Shown here: positions 2,871 through 53,510 of the stretch, piece by piece
Numbering within the stretch: position 1 is the first letter of the stretch
Layout of the letters: the number at the start of each line of letters is the position of its first letter
Assembly (NCBI GenBank): GCA_964513145.1
Contig: CAZELK010000005.1
Coordinates: 1 to 64,000, forward strand
Origin: Candidatus Woesearchaeota archaeon
GTDB lineage: Archaea > Nanobdellota > Nanobdellia > SCGC-AAA011-G17 > JACPIM01
DNA: 64,000 bases
Direction: 5' to 3'
Program-made: the position numbers and the translations under genes
Notes under the pieces: generated by a model
Seen by the model: the letters and a program-made list of their open reading frames with translations, nothing else
The model's database searches: none
Told to the model about the DNA's origin: nothing

Positions 2871-3434
2871 TTATCTTAAGTGCTCGTAAATTTCTTCCCA
2901 ATTAAATACTCTCTTTATTCCATTATTTAGTTTTTCATTCCATGGCTGATCAAATAATAACACTTCTATACCTAAAGAATGAACTTTTAAGGCAGTTTCA
3001 GGGTCGTCGTCTATTGCAATATCGCATTTTGCTTTTTTAGAGGTTTCGTGTTTTGATCCGCCTATTTCCCCTTCTCTTGGGTATTGATTGACTAAATGCA
3101 CTTCTGAAAAACATGAAGGGAAAAATCTTTCAAGCCATTCAATTGTTTGTTCTTTCAAATGCGGAGGCCGACCTGAAACTATTATTAATTCATGAGTTTT
3201 TGATAAATCTTTTATTATCTGGGGAGAACTGCCTATTGGCAAAATTTTTTCAAAAAAATTACTTTTTTCAAAAGACCTATAATAATCAATAAACTTTTGT
3301 AATTGCCCAGCATAATTATGAACGCCAAGATTATTTTTGTCTAATTTTATTTTATGCTCTTCAAAAATATAATTAATAAAAGCTGGTGTTGAATCTGCCA
3401 TAGTATCGTCTATGTCTACATGGATCTTTGCCAT
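2871..3434 (-). CDS. HAD-family 5'(3')-deoxyribonucleotidase
   Basis: VDIDDTMAD HAD motif I, IVSGR, AIDD, LFDQPWN, typical NT5C-like. Confidence 0.8.
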   Translation of the reverse strand: MAKIHVDIDDTMADSTPAFINYIFEEHKIKLDKNNLGVHNYAGQLQKFIDYYRSFEKSNFFEKILPIGSSPQIIKDLSKTHELIIVSGRPPHLKEQTIEWLERFFPSCFSEVHLVNQYPREGEIGGSKHETSKKAKCDIAIDDDPETALKVHSLGIEVLLFDQPWNEKLNNGIKRVFNWEEIYEHLR

Positions 3435-3998
3435 TTATTTATCTAAAAATATTTTGCTTGCCAAAGGCTCCAATTGCTTATTATATTTAGATTCTTTTCT
3501 TTTATTATATGGCATTTCAGACGGCGAAGTCAAAGTGTCAAATGTTAATCTGCATACTCTTGTGCCAGACCATAGTGTTACCGGAACTTTTGATATGTTT
3601 GCTATTTCCAATGTCAAATAACCTTCAAACCCAGGATCAACTGAACCTGCTGTTGAATGAATAACAACACCCAAGCGACCAAGAGAGCTTCTACCATCCA
3701 GCCTTCCAACTAAATCATCCGGGAGCTTTATGTATTCTTTTGTTGCTCCCAAAACAAATTCACCTGGGTGCAATATAAACGGTTCATTCTCATTTTTTTC
3801 TATTGTTTCCATCATATCTGCTGGAACACTTTCTTTTGTATCGATATGCGTTACTTGAGTTGTTTTAAAAATCTTAAATTTACTTCCTAATCTTAAATCA
3901 ACTGAAGCCAAACTTACACTACTTATATCTAAACCTTGTATTACCAAAGAACCATCAGCAATTCTCTTTTTTATATCTCTATCACTTAATACTGCCAT
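3435..3998 (-). CDS. dcd: dCTP deaminase
   Basis: SVDLRLG, GRSSLGRLG, AGSVDPGFEGYLTLEI, Y..R..SKY motifs. Confidence 0.95.
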   Translation of the reverse strand: MAVLSDRDIKKRIADGSLVIQGLDISSVSLASVDLRLGSKFKIFKTTQVTHIDTKESVPADMMETIEKNENEPFILHPGEFVLGATKEYIKLPDDLVGRLDGRSSLGRLGVVIHSTAGSVDPGFEGYLTLEIANISKVPVTLWSGTRVCRLTFDTLTSPSEMPYNKRKESKYNKQLEPLASKIFLDK

Positions 3999-4072
3999 AC
4001 CCCTTAATTTGTACAGCTACTATTTAATATTTTTTATATTCCGAAGATACTATTTTTGATACAAAATTGAAA

Positions 4073-4306
4073 TTAAACTTCTTGTCTTAATTTATCATAA
4101 TCTTCTCTGCTAATTTTAGCCTGCTTTAAGATTTCATTTAGCAACCCAGTTCCAAGTTCTTCATTACCATGAACTGGAATTACAGTTCTTCTGCCATCCA
4201 AGTGCTTAAATCTTATATGACTACCTTTTCCATAGCTTTTCTCAAACCCTAACCTCTCTAGAATCTTACACATTTTTTTGCCAGAAACCAGTACTAATTT
4301 TGTCAT
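4073..4306 (-). CDS. hicA: HicA toxin
   Basis: LGF...GKGSHIRFKHLDGRRTVIPVHGNEEL. Confidence 0.92.
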   Translation of the reverse strand: MTKLVLVSGKKMCKILERLGFEKSYGKGSHIRFKHLDGRRTVIPVHGNEELGTGLLNEILKQAKISREDYDKLRQEV

Positions 4307-4527
4307 ACTTCAATCTGAACTTGCTGTACGCCAATAAATTTCATTGGCTCTATTTCCTCTTTATCTGCTTCCAAACAAACTTCAATAGCTTCTTTAATTC
4401 TGTCAAGAACCTGGGCGATTGTTTTACCCTGGGTATGGCAACCAGCTATGTCTGGAACAGTTGCAACATACCATCCTTCTTCATCTTGCTCTATTAAGAC
4501 TGTAAAGTTTAACATTTTATTTTCCAT
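4303..4527 (-). CDS. hicB: HicB antitoxin (short form)
   Basis: IEQDEEGWYVATVPDIAGCHTQGKT; ATGA overlap with hicA. Confidence 0.92.
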   Translation of the reverse strand: MENKMLNFTVLIEQDEEGWYVATVPDIAGCHTQGKTIAQVLDRIKEAIEVCLEADKEEIEPMKFIGVQQVQIEV

Positions 4528-4579
4528 AAAAGTATTAAAGAACAGGCTTATATAAAATTATCGGCAGTTTTCACTCGAG

Positions 4580-6175
4580 TTATCTTGTTTTTAAATTGTT
4601 TAATATATTAGTTAATTGCTCTGTGCTTTTTTTCAAATTAGGATCCTCTTTTTTTATAATTGGTTTATCTATTGGCTTTTCGATAATTGGTTTTAATAAT
4701 GTGTCAAAATTTAATTTATTATCCTGAGCATAATGAATATTTAATTTTAAAGCTGTTTCTGCTTTCATTAATTCCAATCCAATGTCCAATGCATGAGGAA
4801 CTAAAGAAATTATGTTTTCTTTAATCAGAATATTTCTCATCTCTTCTGCTGATTTTGCCTTGTAAATTCCCAAAGTTTCTTTTGTTGGTGATGTGTGCTC
4901 GAGAATAATTTCATTATCTTCTAAACTTATAATCAAATTACCCCTGGGATCAAATTCAGACAATAAACTTGCATATCTTGGCAAATACATTTCAACTATT
5001 TTATTGCATCTTTCCCAAGAATCATCATAAATATGTGCTGACTGCGACAAAATAACTAAATTGCCTAATTTTAAATCATCATTTATTCCTTTTGCTTTTA
5101 ACCCTTCTTCAACCTGCTTTCTTATTTCTTCCTGCAATACTCTTAAAGCCAAGGCATTTTCTGGATAACCTTCGAACATGTCATGACTTCTAAAAATAGC
5201 AGTCATATACAATTTATTATTATTTACCCTTAACCAGATATGATTTAAGCATGGACTTCCACCCAATGTCAAGTCTTTTACAGTATCCCATAAACTTATT
5301 ACAACTGCTCTTGAAACTGATTCACGAATTAATTTTTCAACAGCGCCTTTAACCTGGTCAATGCCAAACCAGCTTCGCATTCTGCTTCCATAAGTGTATT
5401 CATTTTTTGATGTTCCACCTGGAAGATCCTTAGTCATTCTCGGAATATATTCATTTACATGCTGCTTGTCTGACGGGAAAAAATCCGGAACATTAAGATT
5501 ATATGGATCTTCATCTGAAATAATCGACATTAAATTCACAATTTCTTTTTGCATATCATCATAATGAGTGCCTGATTCTTTGCCAAATTTTAAAATTGTG
5601 TCTAAAACTTTTATCCATGCTTCTGCAACTGTTTTTCCCCTTACTACATAACCAATATATTCGCCAACATATTTTTTTACAAACTCTTCTTTTTTAATAA
5701 AAATCATTTTTTCCCTTGTTTTTTGTATTTGTGGCAATGTTGAGAAATCAAATATGCTTAAATCCGGAACTTTTACTAAAGAAACTGTTTCCCTTATCAA
5801 GTTTAAAGCTTCTTCTGTTATATCTAAGTCTATGTAACCTTCATACTGGCTATTTACACGCCAACATGGTTTTTCAGTTGTGTCTGTTTTTCCCTTGAAA
5901 AAACCTTTTTCGAAAAAGTCTTTTAAAACTATGCCTGATTTTGAAAAATCTACCCCACTCAATAACAAAATAGAAATTTTTGGATTTGCCAATAAATTTC
6001 TTATTAATAAATCCAAACCTCTTTCTGCACTATACAAAGGACCAATTACACAATATTTACTAGAATCAATTTTTTGGGCCAATTCTTTTGGCTTGCTCCA
6101 CAAAGTTACTATGCCCACATTGCTATCTGGATTGCCATAAATTAGTCTAGACCCCTTATATAAAGCTTCAAACAA
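4580..6175 (-). CDS. thyA: Thymidylate synthase fused to N-terminal MtrA-like and C-terminal DUF4346-like domains
   Basis: YTYGSRMR, SPCL catalytic Cys, FRSHD, SQSAHIY; TTG start 10 nt after GAGGTG; extra domains recognised by motif. Confidence 0.85.
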   Translation of the reverse strand: MFEALYKGSRLIYGNPDSNVGIVTLWSKPKELAQKIDSSKYCVIGPLYSAERGLDLLIRNLLANPKISILLLSGVDFSKSGIVLKDFFEKGFFKGKTDTTEKPCWRVNSQYEGYIDLDITEEALNLIRETVSLVKVPDLSIFDFSTLPQIQKTREKMIFIKKEEFVKKYVGEYIGYVVRGKTVAEAWIKVLDTILKFGKESGTHYDDMQKEIVNLMSIISDEDPYNLNVPDFFPSDKQHVNEYIPRMTKDLPGGTSKNEYTYGSRMRSWFGIDQVKGAVEKLIRESVSRAVVISLWDTVKDLTLGGSPCLNHIWLRVNNNKLYMTAIFRSHDMFEGYPENALALRVLQEEIRKQVEEGLKAKGINDDLKLGNLVILSQSAHIYDDSWERCNKIVEMYLPRYASLLSEFDPRGNLIISLEDNEIILEHTSPTKETLGIYKAKSAEEMRNILIKENIISLVPHALDIGLELMKAETALKLNIHYAQDNKLNFDTLLKPIIEKPIDKPIIKKEDPNLKKSTEQLTNILNNLKTR

Positions 6176-6244
6176 ATTAATTTTTCACCTCAAAACAATT
6201 TTGATGTTTTTATATATAAATATTTGTCTCGTGAATAACAATAA

Positions 6245-6874
6245 TTAATATTCAATGCCTCTTCTAGCTGAAACACCTTTTTCATAATAATGCTTGACTA
6301 ATTTCATTTCAGTAACCAAATCAGCCATTTCTATTATTTTTGGGTCAGCGTCCCGACCTGTAATAATTAATTCTGTTGTTTTGTTTTTATTTTTTATTAA
6401 ATCCATTAATTCAGTTAACTGCAAAAATCCAAGTTTTACTGCCACATTTACTTCATCTAAAACAACCATATCATATTCTTGTGAAGAAGTAATTTCTTTT
6501 GCCTTATCAAATGCCAATCTTACAAAACGTCCTTGCTCTTCATCATTTAAAAAACAATATCTGCAAGGGCCGCATTCTATATCTTCTCTTACATAATCAA
6601 AAAAATGAGCCTTGTCATCAAAACCAATCAATTTCAACTGCTTTTTTTCAACAACACAACCACGACCATACTGAATAAACTCATTATTTGGAAGAAAATT
6701 TTTAGCACTAATGAATTCACCAGTATAAGCACCACCTTTCATGAACTGGATTATAAAAACTTTAAGACCCTGGCCAATTGCCCTGACAGCCAGGCCAATT
6801 GCTGCAGAAGTTTTTCCTTTTCCATTACCTGTGTATACTTGAACTAAGCCCAGCTTGCTTTGCGTTATTTTTAT
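6245..6874 (-). CDS. cobO: Cob(I)alamin adenosyltransferase (CobO/BtuR type)
   Basis: Frame extends upstream of track ATG to LGLVQVYTGNGKGKTSAAIGLAVRA; IQFMKG, VVLDEV, LIITGR, ADLVTEM, RRGIEY; start codon uncertain (ATA 6874 or 6868). Confidence 0.9.
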   Translation of the reverse strand: MKITQSKLGLVQVYTGNGKGKTSAAIGLAVRAIGQGLKVFIIQFMKGGAYTGEFISAKNFLPNNEFIQYGRGCVVEKKQLKLIGFDDKAHFFDYVREDIECGPCRYCFLNDEEQGRFVRLAFDKAKEITSSQEYDMVVLDEVNVAVKLGFLQLTELMDLIKNKNKTTELIITGRDADPKIIEMADLVTEMKLVKHYYEKGVSARRGIEY

Positions 6875-25204: not shown

Positions 25205-25293
25205 AGAAGTTTGAATAGTTCCTATTTTTTGTAATTTTTTCTGTATAATTCAATAATTTTGATGTCTTGAAAAATTAAATATTTTCAAAATTA
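25205..25293 (+). repeat. ~89-bp direct repeat, copy A
   Basis: Close match to 28178-28267; first 23 nt also at 26372-26394. Confidence 0.88.
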
Positions 25294-26342: not shown

Positions 26343-26413
26343 AACTATTATTACCATTAAATTATGTTTAGAGAAGTTTGAATAGTTCCTATTTATTACC
26401 GCTTTTATTGATA

Positions 26414-47144: not shown

Positions 47145-47205
47145 TTTACAATATGCAACAAGAAATACAACAATGTATATAAAAAGCTTTTACTTTTTAC
47201 ATTTT

Positions 47206-47838
47206 ATGGGGGATATTATTACTTACGAAGCCTTATATGATATACTCAGAAAAGAGAAGTATGAAAAAGAACTGCAAAAATTAGAACCTAATTTTTTTCA
47301 GCTAGTTATAAAGTATTTAGAAGAAAAAGAAGCTATTTTAGCATCACAAAAAACTAAAGACTCTGTATTTGCAAAAGAAAGCGATAAAACCCAGAAACAA
47401 TTAGATAATGTAGGGAAAATACTTAGAGAAATTTATGAAAAAAGAGAAAATAAAATAGTTCAAAATGCTTTGATTTCTTCCAGATTTAATGAAAGCAATT
47501 TGCCAAATATGTTAAGCGAGGAAATCCAATTTTATAATCACATAAAAAATATATTAAGCAAATATAGAACAAACATATTAGAAAACTTGCTTTTGAAAAA
47601 GCTACCAAATATTTTACAAGATGAAATTAAAATAAAAGAAGAAAAACCAAGTGAACTTAAAAAAGAAAATCCTTTTAGCTTATTACGAATTTTAGAACCT
47701 GTTCCACAATTTATAGCTGATGATTTAACCTTATATGGCCCTTTTGAAAATGAGGATGTGGTTTCTTTGCCCAATCATATTGCTTCAATTCTAATTAATA
47801 AAAACAAAGCTGAAGAAATTAAGCCAGAGATTAAATAA
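47206..47838 (+). CDS. GINS complex subunit (Gins15-like)
   Basis: ITYEALYDILRKEK...LQKL, C-terminal B-domain YGPF..EDVVSLP; start at ATG 47206. Confidence 0.8.
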   Translation: MGDIITYEALYDILRKEKYEKELQKLEPNFFQLVIKYLEEKEAILASQKTKDSVFAKESDKTQKQLDNVGKILREIYEKRENKIVQNALISSRFNESNLPNMLSEEIQFYNHIKNILSKYRTNILENLLLKKLPNILQDEIKIKEEKPSELKKENPFSLLRILEPVPQFIADDLTLYGPFENEDVVSLPNHIASILINKNKAEEIKPEIK

Positions 47839-47968
47839 TAATTGAAAAAATTTCTAAGAGCCGTATTGGGATTTTTATGGGATGTAAATATTTAGAGTAC
47901 CTAAGTTTATTATATGAAAATTATGGACTGCACCCCCAAAATTGGACAAAAAAATTTGAGATGCTGTT

Positions 47969-48085
47969 TACTATAAATATAGAATAAATCTTCCTAAAGA
48001 ACTTGTTGAAGAAAATAACTTATTAAGGAATGAATTAAAAATTAAATATGAAAATGGAAAAATTATTATTGAGAAAATGTATTAG
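47969..48085 (+). pseudogene. AbrB-like antitoxin remnant
   Basis: YYKYRINLPKELVEE...KYENGKIIIEK without in-frame start. Confidence 0.55.
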
Positions 48086-49151
48086 ATTTGTCTATAATCT
48101 TTTGCAGAAGAGAAATAAACTCCTTTGTATCAACAAAATAATTTGGGTAAGCTTTCTTTAAATCACTACTTGTGTCAGCTCCAACCAAAACAACATCATA
48201 TTCCCTTTTTCCCTGATTCCTCTTTTCTGCTTTTGCATAATCAGAGATTGCTAATTCTTCTTGACTTTTGGTATATCCGGTAATATTTAATTTTTCTTGC
48301 ACGATATCTAACTCTAATAGAAAGAACTCTAGTTTTGGTTTTTTCCTTACAGCTTGTTCAAAAACATTTATAGCTTGCGTCCACCCTTTCATAACTTTAA
48401 TTACCTGCAATTCTTTTTCTTTTTCTTTGATTTTATTATATAGCTCTTCTTTTTTGTCAGGAGTATTCGGTACTAATGGAGTATCTTCTATTAACGCAAG
48501 AGCAGAACTCACTAATCTAAAAAAATCCATCCATTCTTTTTGTCCTTCATTGGATTTAATTGCCTGTCTTGTAAAGAAATCAACAGTCTCAATTGCAGTA
48601 GCCCAAAGATGCTGGAGTTTTGATCTTATTTGAATCTCTATAAGTAACTTATTATAATCTTTTTTTCCTTCTTTATCACTATTATATCGATAAATAATGT
48701 GGATGCTTCTATAACCATCTTCTTTTGGATTTTTAATGTAGTCTTTTTCACCGACTTTTTTATGTTTTAAATCTCCTTTTACATAACTTTCTTTGTATAA
48801 TTTTCGCACCAACTCTACATTAGACAGGACAGTTCTACATCCCGCAATATCTTGCATTTGGGATAGTTTCATGGTGGGTTTATTTCCATAATACCCCCTT
48901 TGTAATTTTTTAACTATTGATGGAAGTCTTTTTAATCTCTGGACTGTAATTGATTCCACATCTATTTTTTCTGAGACTCTTTTTAGCCTTTTTTTAAAAA
49001 TATGCATTGGGTACCTATGTATTGCTCTCCAATTATCTAATATAGCCAAAGCTTCTTCTACTTCTTGTGGGGAACTTTTAGTATTAATAAAAACACTTCC
49101 AGCCCAATCAATTTTTGATTTACTAAATCCTTTTGGTTTTATCCAATTCAT
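48066..49151 (-). CDS. CapRel-like fused toxSAS toxin-antitoxin (RelA/SpoT synthetase domain)
   Basis: NWRAIHRYP, QRLKR..SI..KL, MQDIAGCR, GYRSIH, EIQIRSKLQH.WATA.E, C-terminal DVVLV...LKKAYPNYF. Confidence 0.85.
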   Translation of the reverse strand: MNWIKPKGFSKSKIDWAGSVFINTKSSPQEVEEALAILDNWRAIHRYPMHIFKKRLKRVSEKIDVESITVQRLKRLPSIVKKLQRGYYGNKPTMKLSQMQDIAGCRTVLSNVELVRKLYKESYVKGDLKHKKVGEKDYIKNPKEDGYRSIHIIYRYNSDKEGKKDYNKLLIEIQIRSKLQHLWATAIETVDFFTRQAIKSNEGQKEWMDFFRLVSSALALIEDTPLVPNTPDKKEELYNKIKEKEKELQVIKVMKGWTQAINVFEQAVRKKPKLEFFLLELDIVQEKLNITGYTKSQEELAISDYAKAEKRNQGKREYDVVLVGADTSSDLKKAYPNYFVDTKEFISLLQKIIDKSNTFSQ

Positions 49152-49519
49152 TCAGTTTAGGGTGAATTCTTTATTTAAAATAGTTCCTATTTTGCGCATT
49201 AGTTGATATTTCATTTATGCCATTTAAAGCTATTATAACATCATTTTAGAAAATTTTGAAGTATTTCTTATAATAGACCTCTTTTTGCGCGGTAAATTCT
49301 GGCACTGAAAAAATGTATAAACCTTAGGTAACTAATAACTAAGTTGTAAAATGCCAAAAAGGAATGAGAGAAGAATATTATAATATAAAATATTAATGTC
49401 TGTATTGGGAACTTGGAGACTGTAGAGGGTTTAAATACGAAATGCCCCCAAAAATATTTAGAGCCAAATATTAAAAAATGAAAAGGTTATTAAATCCAAA
49501 TTAATCAAAAAATAGATAA

Positions 49520-49831
49520 ATGAAAATCCCAAAAAAGATCAATAGGTATTGTAAAAAATGTAAAAAGCATACAGAGCACGCTGTTTCACAAGCAAAGAAA
49601 AAAGAAAGGGGCAGTTTAAAGAGAGGGTCAATTAATAGAGCAAGAAAACGAGGTTTAGGAAGGGGATTTGGTAATTTAGGAAGATATGGTTCGAGACCAG
49701 CTATTTCCAAATTTAAAATGAGTGGGGCTAAAACTTCCAAAAAAGTTGACTTAAGGTATAAATGTAAAATCTGCGGAAAGAGCAGTGTTCAAAAAAAAGG
49801 ATTTAGAGCCAAAAAAGTGGAGTTCAAATGA
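49520..49831 (+). CDS. rpl44e: 50S ribosomal protein L44e
   Basis: [30 protein letters not shown]. Confidence 0.97.
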
Positions 49832-52247: not shown

Positions 52248-53510
52248 TTAACATAATAACCATCTCCAAACTGGGATAACTTTTATTAATTTATTTTTTA
52301 GTTTAATTTCTCTTTCGGCATCAGATGTTAAAATAACCCCCTCTTTTAGCTTGAATTTTTCCATTGCTTCCAATAAACCATTTATTTCTCTATCTTTATT
52401 TTCATCGTTTAATTCATAACAAACTTGAATTGCTTCTTTAATCTTGATGCCCTCCCTTATTAAGAAATCACATTCTCTCTTTTCTGAAAAATAATAAATC
52501 TCTTTTCCTTTTCTTTTTAACTCTATAAATACTATATTTTCTAAAAGTTTACCTTTATCTTCTGAGAATTTGAATCCCACTTCTTTCACGAACCCATTAT
52601 CAACACAATATAGCTTTCTAGGATTTTGAATTTGTTTTTTTAAAGAATAATCAAATTTATTAATAAAAAAGAAAATAAAAGCATTTTCGAAAGTTTCTAA
52701 AATTGATTTAACAGTTGATAAATTTTTTATCTCAATTATTTTTGACAAAGATCTTATACTTAATTCTTTGGAAATATTTGATAATAAGTAATTAGAAATT
52801 TCCTTAATTGGCTTTTCTAAATTCTTATTAAATCTCTTTATTATATCTCGATATAAAATACTCTCATATATCTCATGTAAAAGTCTTTTATCTTTATCTA
52901 TAATTACTTTTGGTATCCCCCCTAATGAAAAAAATTCTGAGAATTCTTTTCTTAATTGGGATTGGAGTTTTATATCGATTTTCCAATCATTTCTTTTTAA
53001 TTTTTTTGAATCTAAAAATTCTTTAAAACTGAATGGAAATAAATTATTACTTATCGACCTCCCAGTTAGGATTGTTGATATCTCTTTGCTTAATAGCTTA
53101 GAATTTGACCCGGTTATAAAGATTGTAAATTTTTCTTTTATTCTATCTACCCATTTCTCCCAATCTTTTGTTTCTTGTATCTCATCTATAAAAAAATAAC
53201 AATTTGTAAGATAATTTTGTTCATTTAAAAAATCTAATATTTTTTGAAAATCTTCGGCTGAAAAATCAATTAATCTTTCATCATTAAAATTTATATAAAA
53301 AAATTCTTTTTCTTTTAGTTTTAAATGATTTTTTAATATATATAACAAAGTTGATTTACCGCATCTCCGAACACCAGTTATAATAATTGGAAGTTTCAAA
53401 TGAATGAATGATAATATTTTTTTTGTTATCTCTCTTTCTACAAAATTAGACTGTATTTCAAATTCTTTTTGTTGTTCAAATAGAACATAATAAAGATCAT
53501 CCCTATTCAT
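52248..53510 (-). CDS. AAA+ ATPase with DUF4143-type C-terminal domain
   Basis: GVRRCGKST, FIDEIQ, TGSNS, KLYCVDNG, ENIVF.EL, ECDF. Confidence 0.9.
   Translation of the reverse strand: MNRDDLYYVLFEQQKEFEIQSNFVEREITKKILSFIHLKLPIIITGVRRCGKSTLLYILKNHLKLKEKEFFYINFNDERLIDFSAEDFQKILDFLNEQNYLTNCYFFIDEIQETKDWEKWVDRIKEKFTIFITGSNSKLLSKEISTILTGRSISNNLFPFSFKEFLDSKKLKRNDWKIDIKLQSQLRKEFSEFFSLGGIPKVIIDKDKRLLHEIYESILYRDIIKRFNKNLEKPIKEISNYLLSNISKELSIRSLSKIIEIKNLSTVKSILETFENAFIFFFINKFDYSLKKQIQNPRKLYCVDNGFVKEVGFKFSEDKGKLLENIVFIELKRKGKEIYYFSEKRECDFLIREGIKIKEAIQVCYELNDENKDREINGLLEAMEKFKLKEGVILTSDAEREIKLKNKLIKVIPVWRWLLC

Follow-up and report, generated by a model that had tools for sequence, protein, structure and literature searches.

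The 64,000-nucleotide stretch analysed here (the window; positions 1 to 64,000 of the forward strand of contig CAZELK010000005.1, assembly GCA_964513145.1, from a Candidatus Woesearchaeota archaeon) carries, between GINS and rpl44e, an intact gene for a 361-residue protein that aligns over nearly its whole length with CapRel-SJ46, the CapRel of Salmonella prophage SJ46. With moderate confidence, we favour the reading that this protein is an autoinhibited, tRNA-pyrophosphorylating antiviral switch of the CapRel family, which arrived at the GINS-rpl44e site as cargo of an IS6/IS240-type transposon. In bacteria, CapRel and the way it works have already been described (PMC9712102, PMC11578894). 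Below, G000 is the source genome (98.8% complete), and other G- and L-numbers denote comparison genomes and loci.

Sequence, active site and predicted fold of the CapRel protein

The gene and its parts were located as follows.

48066-49151, minus strand: CapRel-type fused toxSAS gene, 361 amino acids, intact open reading frame (ORF), by ORF reading, Pfam, PADLOC, PDB, PHROG and AlphaFold2
48597-48941, minus strand: toxSYNTH (RelA_SpoT) catalytic core, residues 71-185, by Pfam and a residue map onto CapRel-SJ46
48180-48326, minus strand: pseudo-zinc-finger (sensor/antitoxin) domain (pseudo-ZFD), residues 276-324, by AlphaFold2 secondary structure and the full-length fold match to 7ZTB
48138-48149, minus strand: YPNY (YXXY) autoinhibition motif, residues 335-338, equivalent to Y352-P-N-Y355 of CapRel-SJ46

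RelA_SpoT is the sole Pfam domain of the protein (residues 71-185, E = 8.6e-19, 68 bits with a cut-off of 27). Residues 15-371 of CapRel-SJ46 (7ZTB/9ERV) aligned with residues 9-354 of the window protein (E = 4.6e-47, 96% of length), the two proteins being 33.6% identical and 361 and 373 residues long, respectively. The PADLOC model PDC-S33 matched at 3.2e-118 over model positions 1-343 of 349, and PHROG 4773 at 3.8e-97. PDC-S33 also matches members of the outgroup clade and CapRel-SJ46 itself (7e-87), and is therefore in effect a CapRel-family model. Matches to plain alarmone synthetases (RelQ/RelP chains) were restricted to residues ~52-192, at about 1e-10. The initial annotation had described a toxSYNTH domain fused to a C-terminal domain ending in LKKAYPNYF, and this description was borne out: all nine residues of that stretch (331-339) are identical in CapRel-SJ46. 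Because the alignment with CapRel-SJ46 extends over the full length, the C-terminal domain is homologous to that of CapRel-SJ46, beyond a mere likeness of motif.

In CapRel-SJ46, R79 and R116 coordinate ATP, Y155 lies in the G-loop, Y352 and Y355 form the YXXY motif, and A77, V338, L339, A341 and A351, together with R116, make up the autoinhibition interface (PMC9712102). Alignment placed R79, R116 and Y155 at R72, R106 and Y147 of the window protein, and Y352, Y355, V338, L339 and A351 at Y335, Y338, V321, L322 and A334, all identical; the two changes at the interface, A77 to V70 and A341 to G324, are conservative. The core and adjoining residues comprise R72, D101, R106, G146-Y147 (G-loop) and E172/Q174/R176, of which D101 and E172 align with the acidic catalytic residues of CapRel-SJ46. 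The catalytic residues were invariant in an alignment of 130 homologues, and the YPNY motif was nearly invariant among 185 members of the archaeal clade described below.

An AlphaFold2 model built from the 130-homologue alignment reached a predicted local distance difference test (pLDDT) score of 86.8 and a predicted template-modelling (pTM) score of 0.83. Beyond the single-domain synthetases the protein has an extra C-terminal domain of ~170 residues, with no cysteine in residues 266-361. The model shows strands at 276-282, 287-293 and 318-324 and a helix at 295-311, in the order strand, strand, helix, strand, followed by helices 325-334 and 338-360 that hinge exactly at YPNY; this predicted topology is that described for the pseudo-ZFD and anchor of CapRel-SJ46. 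Foldseek ranked 9ERV and 7ZTB highest (full length, E about 1e-23, TM 0.79-0.83), and next came alarmone synthetases matching the N-terminal half only (RelQ/RelP, TM 0.35-0.43, normalised by model length). Sequence, residues and predicted fold together support the assignment of the protein as a CapRel-type fused toxSAS.

By analogy with CapRel-SJ46, the C-terminal pseudo-ZFD would hold the N-terminal toxSYNTH pyrophosphokinase inactive, with the YPNY hinge inserted between R72 and R106 so as to block the ATP site. Once a foreign (viral) protein had bound to the C-terminal domain, the enzyme would be freed to pyrophosphorylate the 3' CCA ends of tRNAs, so that translation would stop and the infection be aborted. 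Substrate, toxicity, trigger and antiviral role are all taken over from the bacterial protein in this scheme. The ORF has stayed intact amid the decay of the surrounding element (see below), the active site, hinge and interface are conserved and the C-terminal domain is modelled confidently; for these reasons the protein is probably a working CapRel-type switch.

Relatives, distribution and horizontal transfer

Protein searches (word-indexed and exhaustive) returned 1419 representatives at 1e-30, and 5286 when E was allowed to reach 1e-3. The best 120 clusters were 67-80% identical to the query and belonged, where named, to Pacearchaeota, Woesearchaeota, Nanoarchaeota and Aenigmatarchaeota, and a scan of one genome per species gave 341 relatives, the best 80 of which were nearly all DPANN, from several phyla and with GC contents of 20-56%. 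The nearest relatives are thus hundreds of DPANN genes and a few genes of ultra-small bacteria, at 57-80% identity, which points to another ultra-small organism as the proximate donor.

In a FastTree phylogeny of 279 sequences the query fell within a clade of 86 leaves (support 99), itself part of an extended clade of ~100 leaves (support 93-94). The largely prophage-borne bacterial CapRels, CapRel-SJ46 included, lie outside the archaeal clade, which stands beside prophage CapRels. As the tree was rooted at its midpoint only, a transfer of the clade from bacteria to archaea is plausible, no more. Of the outlying members of the extended clade two were inspected, one of them in an archaeal context (archaeal-type S15) and the other on a short plasmid-like contig (NikA-like).

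Four members of the clade come from records named as bacteria, and three of these (L051, L056 and L053) were examined. The genomes of L051 and L056 (1.0 and 0.7 Mb) contain bacterial L7/L12 and lack S8e; the L051 gene (8001-9062) lies on a 288-kb contig flanked by trigger factor, RuvC and TsaD, and the L056 gene (294-1358) is followed by DNA polymerase I. Their CapRels are 65-66% identical to the query and belong to a subclade of 16 leaves (support 97) in which archaea are intermixed. The neighbours of L053 (an epimerase and a treble-clef zinc-finger protein) were uninformative as to the domain of life. The copies at L051 and L056, at least, are genuinely bacterial, and the clade is therefore common to DPANN archaea and ultra-small bacteria. 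One of these two records is named Gammaproteobacteria, with a genome of 1 Mb and 29% GC. A further clade member, 68% identical to the query, lies on a 39.6-kb contig (L035) of a 2.5-Mb record named Candidatus Methanoperedens (G041); either the gene has passed into a lineage that may be a host, or the contig was binned wrongly.

The distribution of the gene is patchy. It was present in 5 of 41 relatives and in 27 of 401 high-quality genomes of the phylum (7%); in the three genus mates it was not found. Three of the copies in the phylum contain one or two in-frame stops (G319:C21:19830-20903, G409:C7:17398-18480 and G203:C51:6043-7104), and a 144-residue C-terminal CapRel fragment was found at G214:C1:683984-684334; these interrupted and fragmentary copies indicate that the gene is lost as well as gained. 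The identities of CapRel and of eIF2-alpha to their counterparts in the source genome were compared for five carriers.

G319, another order: CapRel 79%, eIF2-alpha 35%
G240, another order: CapRel 74%, eIF2-alpha 38%
G004, same family: CapRel 74%, eIF2-alpha 47%
G023 and G018, same order: CapRel 54%, eIF2-alpha 46-47%

In the genus mates G001 and G003, whose eIF2-alpha is 64-65% identical, the CapRel gene was not found. Identities that ignore taxonomy, together with the polymorphism of the insertion, are best explained by repeated horizontal transfer of the gene. The initial annotation had called the gene a horizontally acquired defence; its acquisition is upheld by these identities and by the empty site described below, and the nearest relatives are, a few genes of ultra-small bacteria apart, not bacterial. 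The accompanying statement that RelA/SpoT homologues are uncommon in archaea did not survive, given the 27 of 401 genomes counted here and the 19-69% of genomes per phylum given for several DPANN phyla in PMC8407392, where the genes are read as alarmone enzymes derived from bacteria.

That reading bears directly on the protein, which could instead be a (p)ppGpp-type alarmone synthetase giving a stringent-response-like signal. It would account for the RelA_SpoT Pfam domain, for the naming of relatives as ppGpp synthetases in their source records and for the way DPANN RelA/SpoT genes are interpreted in PMC8407392. Against it, the protein scored 62.7 bits with the YjbM-type NCBIfam model for small alarmone synthetases, for which the cut-off is 320; its closest full-length solved relative is a tRNA pyrophosphokinase; and the autoinhibition motif and interface are conserved. 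Moreover, neither an HD_4 hydrolase, which would be needed to remove the alarmone, nor a second RelA_SpoT gene was found in G000, and a gene that was not found in the three other genomes of the genus and occurs in 7% of the phylum is unlike a core regulator. We therefore consider an alarmone synthetase very improbable, and retain the CapRel-type switch.

A 1.68-kb insertion between GINS and rpl44e

The features of the site, beyond the CapRel coding sequence, are these.

47173-47838: GINS (Gins51), left neighbour
47839-47913, plus strand: degenerate small-gene promoter, a TATA-like stretch and then a TACCTAAG-type operator remnant, by by-eye alignment
47914-48085, plus strand: frameshifted AbrB/MazE-type small gene (pseudogene), by stop-to-stop frames and profile match
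49152-49300, minus strand: cassette promoter, with TATA-like TTTTAAATAAAG about 20-31 nucleotides before the ATG and two GCGCAAAA boxes
49286-49337, unstranded: remnant of the transposase-cargo intergenic region (palindromic TATA region, transposase promoter), by blastn
49338-49519, unstranded: rest of the insertion and native upstream region of rpl44e, the last ~40 nucleotides aligning with the G001/G003 spacer
49520-49831: rpl44e, right neighbour

As initially annotated, the gene lies between GINS and rpl44e. The gap between these two genes is 1681 bp in the window and 76-77 bp in G001 and G003, and TruD, GINS, rpl44e, rps27e and eIF2-alpha are collinear among the three. The empty site in the two genus mates establishes a true insertion of 1.68 kb in the window. 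The same spacer is also empty in G040; in G002 it holds a gene for a 431-residue oxidoreductase-like protein of flavin adenine dinucleotide type (L006:72-1503), and in G004 a VapBC-like pair of a 69-residue AbrB-type antitoxin and a 124-residue PIN-like protein (L009:2101-2765). These differing contents among relatives mark the GINS-rpl44e spacer as a local hot spot for accessory genes.

A perfect 12-nucleotide direct repeat, AAATATTTAGAG, occurs near both edges of the insertion (47886-47897 and 49452-49463, 1566 bp apart). We rejected it as a target duplication: a 1.9-kb stretch with these base frequencies should contain roughly one repeat of the kind by chance, and the left copy falls within the small-gene promoter; the right copy also resembles that promoter.

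The small gene and the transposon family to which it belongs

The AbrB remnant noted beside the CapRel gene in the initial annotation proved to be a true gene remnant, of AbrB-like type. Its N-terminal 20 codons (47914-47976, ATG at 47914) lie in one frame and the rest (47960-48085) in the +1 frame, which on direct reading of the sequence has no usable start codon; the remnant and the 3' end of the CapRel gene, on opposite strands, have 20 bp in common. The second frame matched the profile of a 52-residue DPANN family at 9e-15 and Pfam MazE_antitoxin (PF04014) at 1e-4 (22.6 bits, below the cut-off of 24.7). The family comprises 93 clusters, all DPANN where named, and 17 of 74 members matched MazE_antitoxin, the best at 8.5e-7. 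A model of the small protein (pLDDT 92.6) gave as top folds MazE, AbrB-N and C56/C68 of Sulfolobus plasmid-viruses, all weak (E above 0.2), and nothing relevant was returned when the sequences of solved structures were searched with the profile of the small protein. The promoter remnant at 47839-47913, which starts right after the GINS stop codon, aligns with the conserved pattern TTTAAA..CTTCGGG(C/T)ACCTAAT..ATGAAAATTATG of L019, L031 and L176-L182. An intact small gene (about 52 codons) occupies the same convergent position at L003/L031, L004, L019 and L069, whose CapRels are 52-74% identical to the query.

At L069 (archaeon GW2011_AR18) a transposase, the CapRel gene and the small gene are enclosed by perfect inverted repeats of 24 bp, located at 6725 and 9320, and by an 8-bp duplication, CTTATTTT; the same order of transposase, CapRel and small gene is found at L004 up to the contig end. 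Seven members of the small-gene family were inspected on long contigs. Five of the seven lie beside a DDE transposase recognised by Pfam, either directly or with cargo intervening (four IS240-type, two of them weak marks, and one DDE_Tnp_1), and at L182 an unmarked gene for 296 residues stands in the transposase position. The cargo differs from element to element: Fic, an NYN nuclease, a Schlafen/AlbA-type ATPase, an S49-type protease beside GmrSD and an unknown protein. L181 has no cargo between small gene and transposase, and metabolic genes lie on the other side of its transposase; passengers noted across the family (L176, L178, L179, L181 and L182, about 3420-6630 in each) also include a HAD hydrolase and an inositol phosphatase. 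Four elements have matching terminal inverted repeats, (A)T(G/A)CATTGTT.., that enclose small gene, cargo and transposase, with flanking direct repeats of 7-11 bp. The association of the small gene with IS240-type transposases and varied cargo identifies it as a component of an IS6/IS240-type family of passenger-carrying transposons. A CTTCGGG(C/T)ACC site is common to both element promoters, and is a likely operator for the small protein.

The small gene was also considered as a cognate antitoxin of CapRel and rejected in that role, being absent from ~79 of 85 loci (window counted), convergent with CapRel and an accompaniment of unrelated cargo. Its convergent position and its occurrence with unrelated cargo make a regulator of the element the more likely role.

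The window retains the CapRel gene, its promoter, the broken small gene with its degenerate promoter, and a stretch of intergenic DNA: positions 49286-49337 matched the transposase-CapRel intergenic region of L004 over 52 bp (79%, E = 1.6e-4, blastn), and their pattern GGTACC..TTTATA..ACCGCGCAAA is shared with L004, L069, L015, L019 and L031. In the course of events proposed here, the transposase would have been lost and the small gene frameshifted, while CapRel remained undamaged, as did its own promoter and the two GCGCAAAA boxes in it.

The promoter box array

In the window, the GCGCAAAA boxes stand at -46 (49192-49197) and -139 (49285-49290). Across the clade, GCGCAAA was found upstream of 55 of 80 CapRel genes and downstream of 2 of 81. 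The arrays usually have 2-4 copies, with peaks at -44, -97, -129 and -170, and their proximal box abuts a TTTAAATA-type TATA box. The proximal box of the window overlaps a palindrome, AATAGGAACTATT, of which the window contains only three copies, the other two being in a toxin-antitoxin islet at 25-28 kb.

A 13-nucleotide palindrome, AATAGTTCCTATT, occurs three times in the window (25214-25226, 26381-26393 and 49179-49191; 0.5 copies expected, three being reached in 1 of 100 shuffles). Two of the copies lie in that islet and the third 28 nucleotides upstream of the CapRel start, adjacent to the proximal GCGCAAAA box.

These arrays raise the alternative that the protein is a CapRel-type switch whose C-terminal domain has an added or different job, either binding its own GCGCAAAA array or sensing a cellular or host signal. 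The array accompanies the gene in different phyla and in both domains, at fixed positions and upstream (the 55 of 80 and 2 of 81 above); the pseudo-ZFD is unusually conserved and of fixed length (see below), and has been likened to a zinc-finger transcription-factor fold (PMC9712102); and the cassette has no other conserved gene whose product could bind the boxes. A conserved host factor could bind them just as well, however, and no protein residue was found to covary with the change of the box from GCGCAAA to GCCCAAA, a comparison of low power with only four variant loci. We judge such an added or different job to be quite unlikely, and keep the antiviral CapRel-type switch as the favoured reading.

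Evidence weighing against an antiviral, transposon-delivered switch

Three groups of observations count against this reading. The first concerns delivery. No transposase remnant was detected in 49338-49519 by tblastn with the N-termini of five transposases (best score 15.8 bits; shuffled sequences gave a mean of 15.1 and a maximum of 19.6). An inverted repeat of the L069 type was not found near the insertion with up to 3-5 mismatches allowed, nor was any inverted repeat with a target duplication found around the CapRel gene of the window. With transposase, repeat and duplication all missing here, we infer from the footprints described above that the insertion was delivered by an IS6/IS240-type transposon that has since decayed. 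In most loci homology ends at the CapRel coding sequence and its promoter, and intact inverted repeats with a target duplication surround CapRel in 1 of 84 loci only. The transposon is therefore one demonstrated vehicle of the gene, and an inferred one in the window, rather than its general or sole route.

The second group concerns the sensor domain. In CapRels the pseudo-ZFD is typically, though not by definition, the most variable region, a mark of an arms race. Within the clade, its entropy was 1.22, similar to the 1.29 of the N-terminal helices and the 1.12 of the linker. At toxSYNTH identities of 0.6-0.7, the identity of the pseudo-ZFD was 0.53 in the clade and 0.31 in other CapRels, and the standard deviation of its length was 0.9 residues in the clade and 3.9 in other CapRels; in this comparison the sequence pairs are non-independent and the comparison set is biased to divergent representatives. 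Such conservation appears more in keeping with a trigger that is itself conserved, or with some other role, than with capsids as opponents in an arms race. The capsid sensing named in the initial annotation has no support.

The third group concerns the company that the gene keeps. The 84 loci have mostly housekeeping neighbours and no consistent defence island. All-against-all clustering of the neighbours gave the small gene (five independent loci and the window) as the only candidate for a conserved partner; the other clusters were scattered ribosomal or AAA_14 genes, and Pfam and PADLOC tallies of 150 neighbours found no family in more than three. The window has a gene for an AAA_14 and DUF4143 ATPase at 52248-53510 (minus strand), 3 kb from the CapRel cassette, and AAA_14-type genes lie within four genes of CapRel at L019, L030, L056 and L058. 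IMG/VR contains one clade member (L092), with no capsid, terminase or other hallmark among the ten ORFs scanned. This stretch (L092:1-15569, from a 'giant virus' bin) encodes a CARF-HTH regulator, HEPN, a Schlafen group-3 helicase, a YhcG/PDDEXK nuclease and a UDG-like gene, and is defence-island-like.

The same observations bear on whether the gene is a selfish addiction module that stabilises itself and its transposon or cassette, with no role in defence against viruses. In favour of such a module are the carriage of the gene as transposon cargo, its survival in the window, where the transposase has gone and the small gene is broken, its patchy distribution and frequent transfer, the want of a consistent defence-island context and the conserved sensor domain. 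A single-chain toxin-antitoxin, however, cannot act through differential decay of a separate antitoxin, and the pseudogenised copies mean that loss is tolerated. Furthermore, those relatives that have been characterised serve in defence (PMC9712102), the cargo of sister transposons includes other genes of defence type (Fic, NYN, Schlafen-type ATPase), and one clade member has CARF, HEPN, Schlafen-helicase and PDDEXK genes around it. On this evidence a purely selfish module seems unlikely to us, and the antiviral switch is preferred.

Beyond the favoured reading, the conserved sensor and the operator array together raise a bolder proposal: that the window protein belongs to a distinct CapRel lineage, spread across DPANN archaea and episymbionts resembling those of the candidate phyla radiation (CPR) and carried partly on IS6-type transposons, which reads a conserved trigger and/or represses its own promoter. 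We put this forward tentatively, as a doubtful but possible extension. If it were true, the lineage would follow a regulatory logic unlike that of the bacterial capsid-sensing CapRels, and candidates for the conserved trigger would be a shared virus protein or a signal derived from the host or the symbiosis.

Significance

To our knowledge, almost nothing is known of how DPANN archaea resist viruses or other invaders. The CapRel protein offers a testable single-protein system, and in the literature searched, mostly at the level of titles and abstracts, no description of an archaeal CapRel or PDC-S33 was found. Since DPANN RelA/SpoT genes have been read as stringent-response enzymes (PMC8407392), a CapRel-type reading changes the annotation for hundreds of genomes. 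As far as we can tell, three points are new here: the assignment of the AbrB-like neighbour to an IS6-type cargo transposon, of which one copy carrying CapRel is intact; the GINS-rpl44e hot spot; and the quantified conservation of the sensor domain. The transposon link provides a concrete route between ultra-small archaea and bacteria, and cargo-carrying IS6-type elements (with CapRel, Fic, NYN and Schlafen-type ATPase) may serve these organisms as a mobile set of defence tools. Biology unseen in bacterial CapRels could come to light through two features, the conserved sensor domain and the operator array.

Comparison with known systems

Among computational candidate families, PDC-S33 matches the window protein end to end. 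The two-gene toxSAS systems (FaRel2, PhRel and similar) and the housekeeping small alarmone synthetases RelQ/RelP/YjbM share the RelA_SpoT catalytic fold with the window protein and differ from it in having no fused pseudo-ZFD and YXXY hinge.

The small gene resembles MazE, AbrB, VapB and C56/C68 in the Pfam matches of its family and the top ranks of its model; unlike in MazE/AbrB systems, it is convergent with the cargo and not co-transcribed with it. The elements of the relatives resemble IS6/IS26 in their IS240-type DDE transposase, their terminal repeats and their target duplications of about 7-11 bp; their terminal repeats, beginning GG.. or ..GCATTGTTGCA, resemble the IS26-type end. In contrast to IS6/IS26, the DPANN elements add the 52-residue AbrB/MazE-type gene and carry passengers (CapRel, Fic, NYN, Schlafen-type ATPase and metabolic genes) inside the inverted repeats, and the copy in the window is without transposase and ends.

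The closest known system is CapRel-SJ46, a single-gene system on a mobile element, as the window gene is taken to have been. The two proteins have in common the toxSYNTH domain, the linker helices, the cysteine-free pseudo-ZFD and the C-terminal helical anchor. The clade of the window protein differs in its hosts, which are archaea and ultra-small bacteria, and in its vehicle, which is an IS6-type transposon or a bare cassette where CapRel-SJ46 has a prophage. It differs also in a promoter with a conserved GCGCAAAA array and in a sensor domain that is much less variable.

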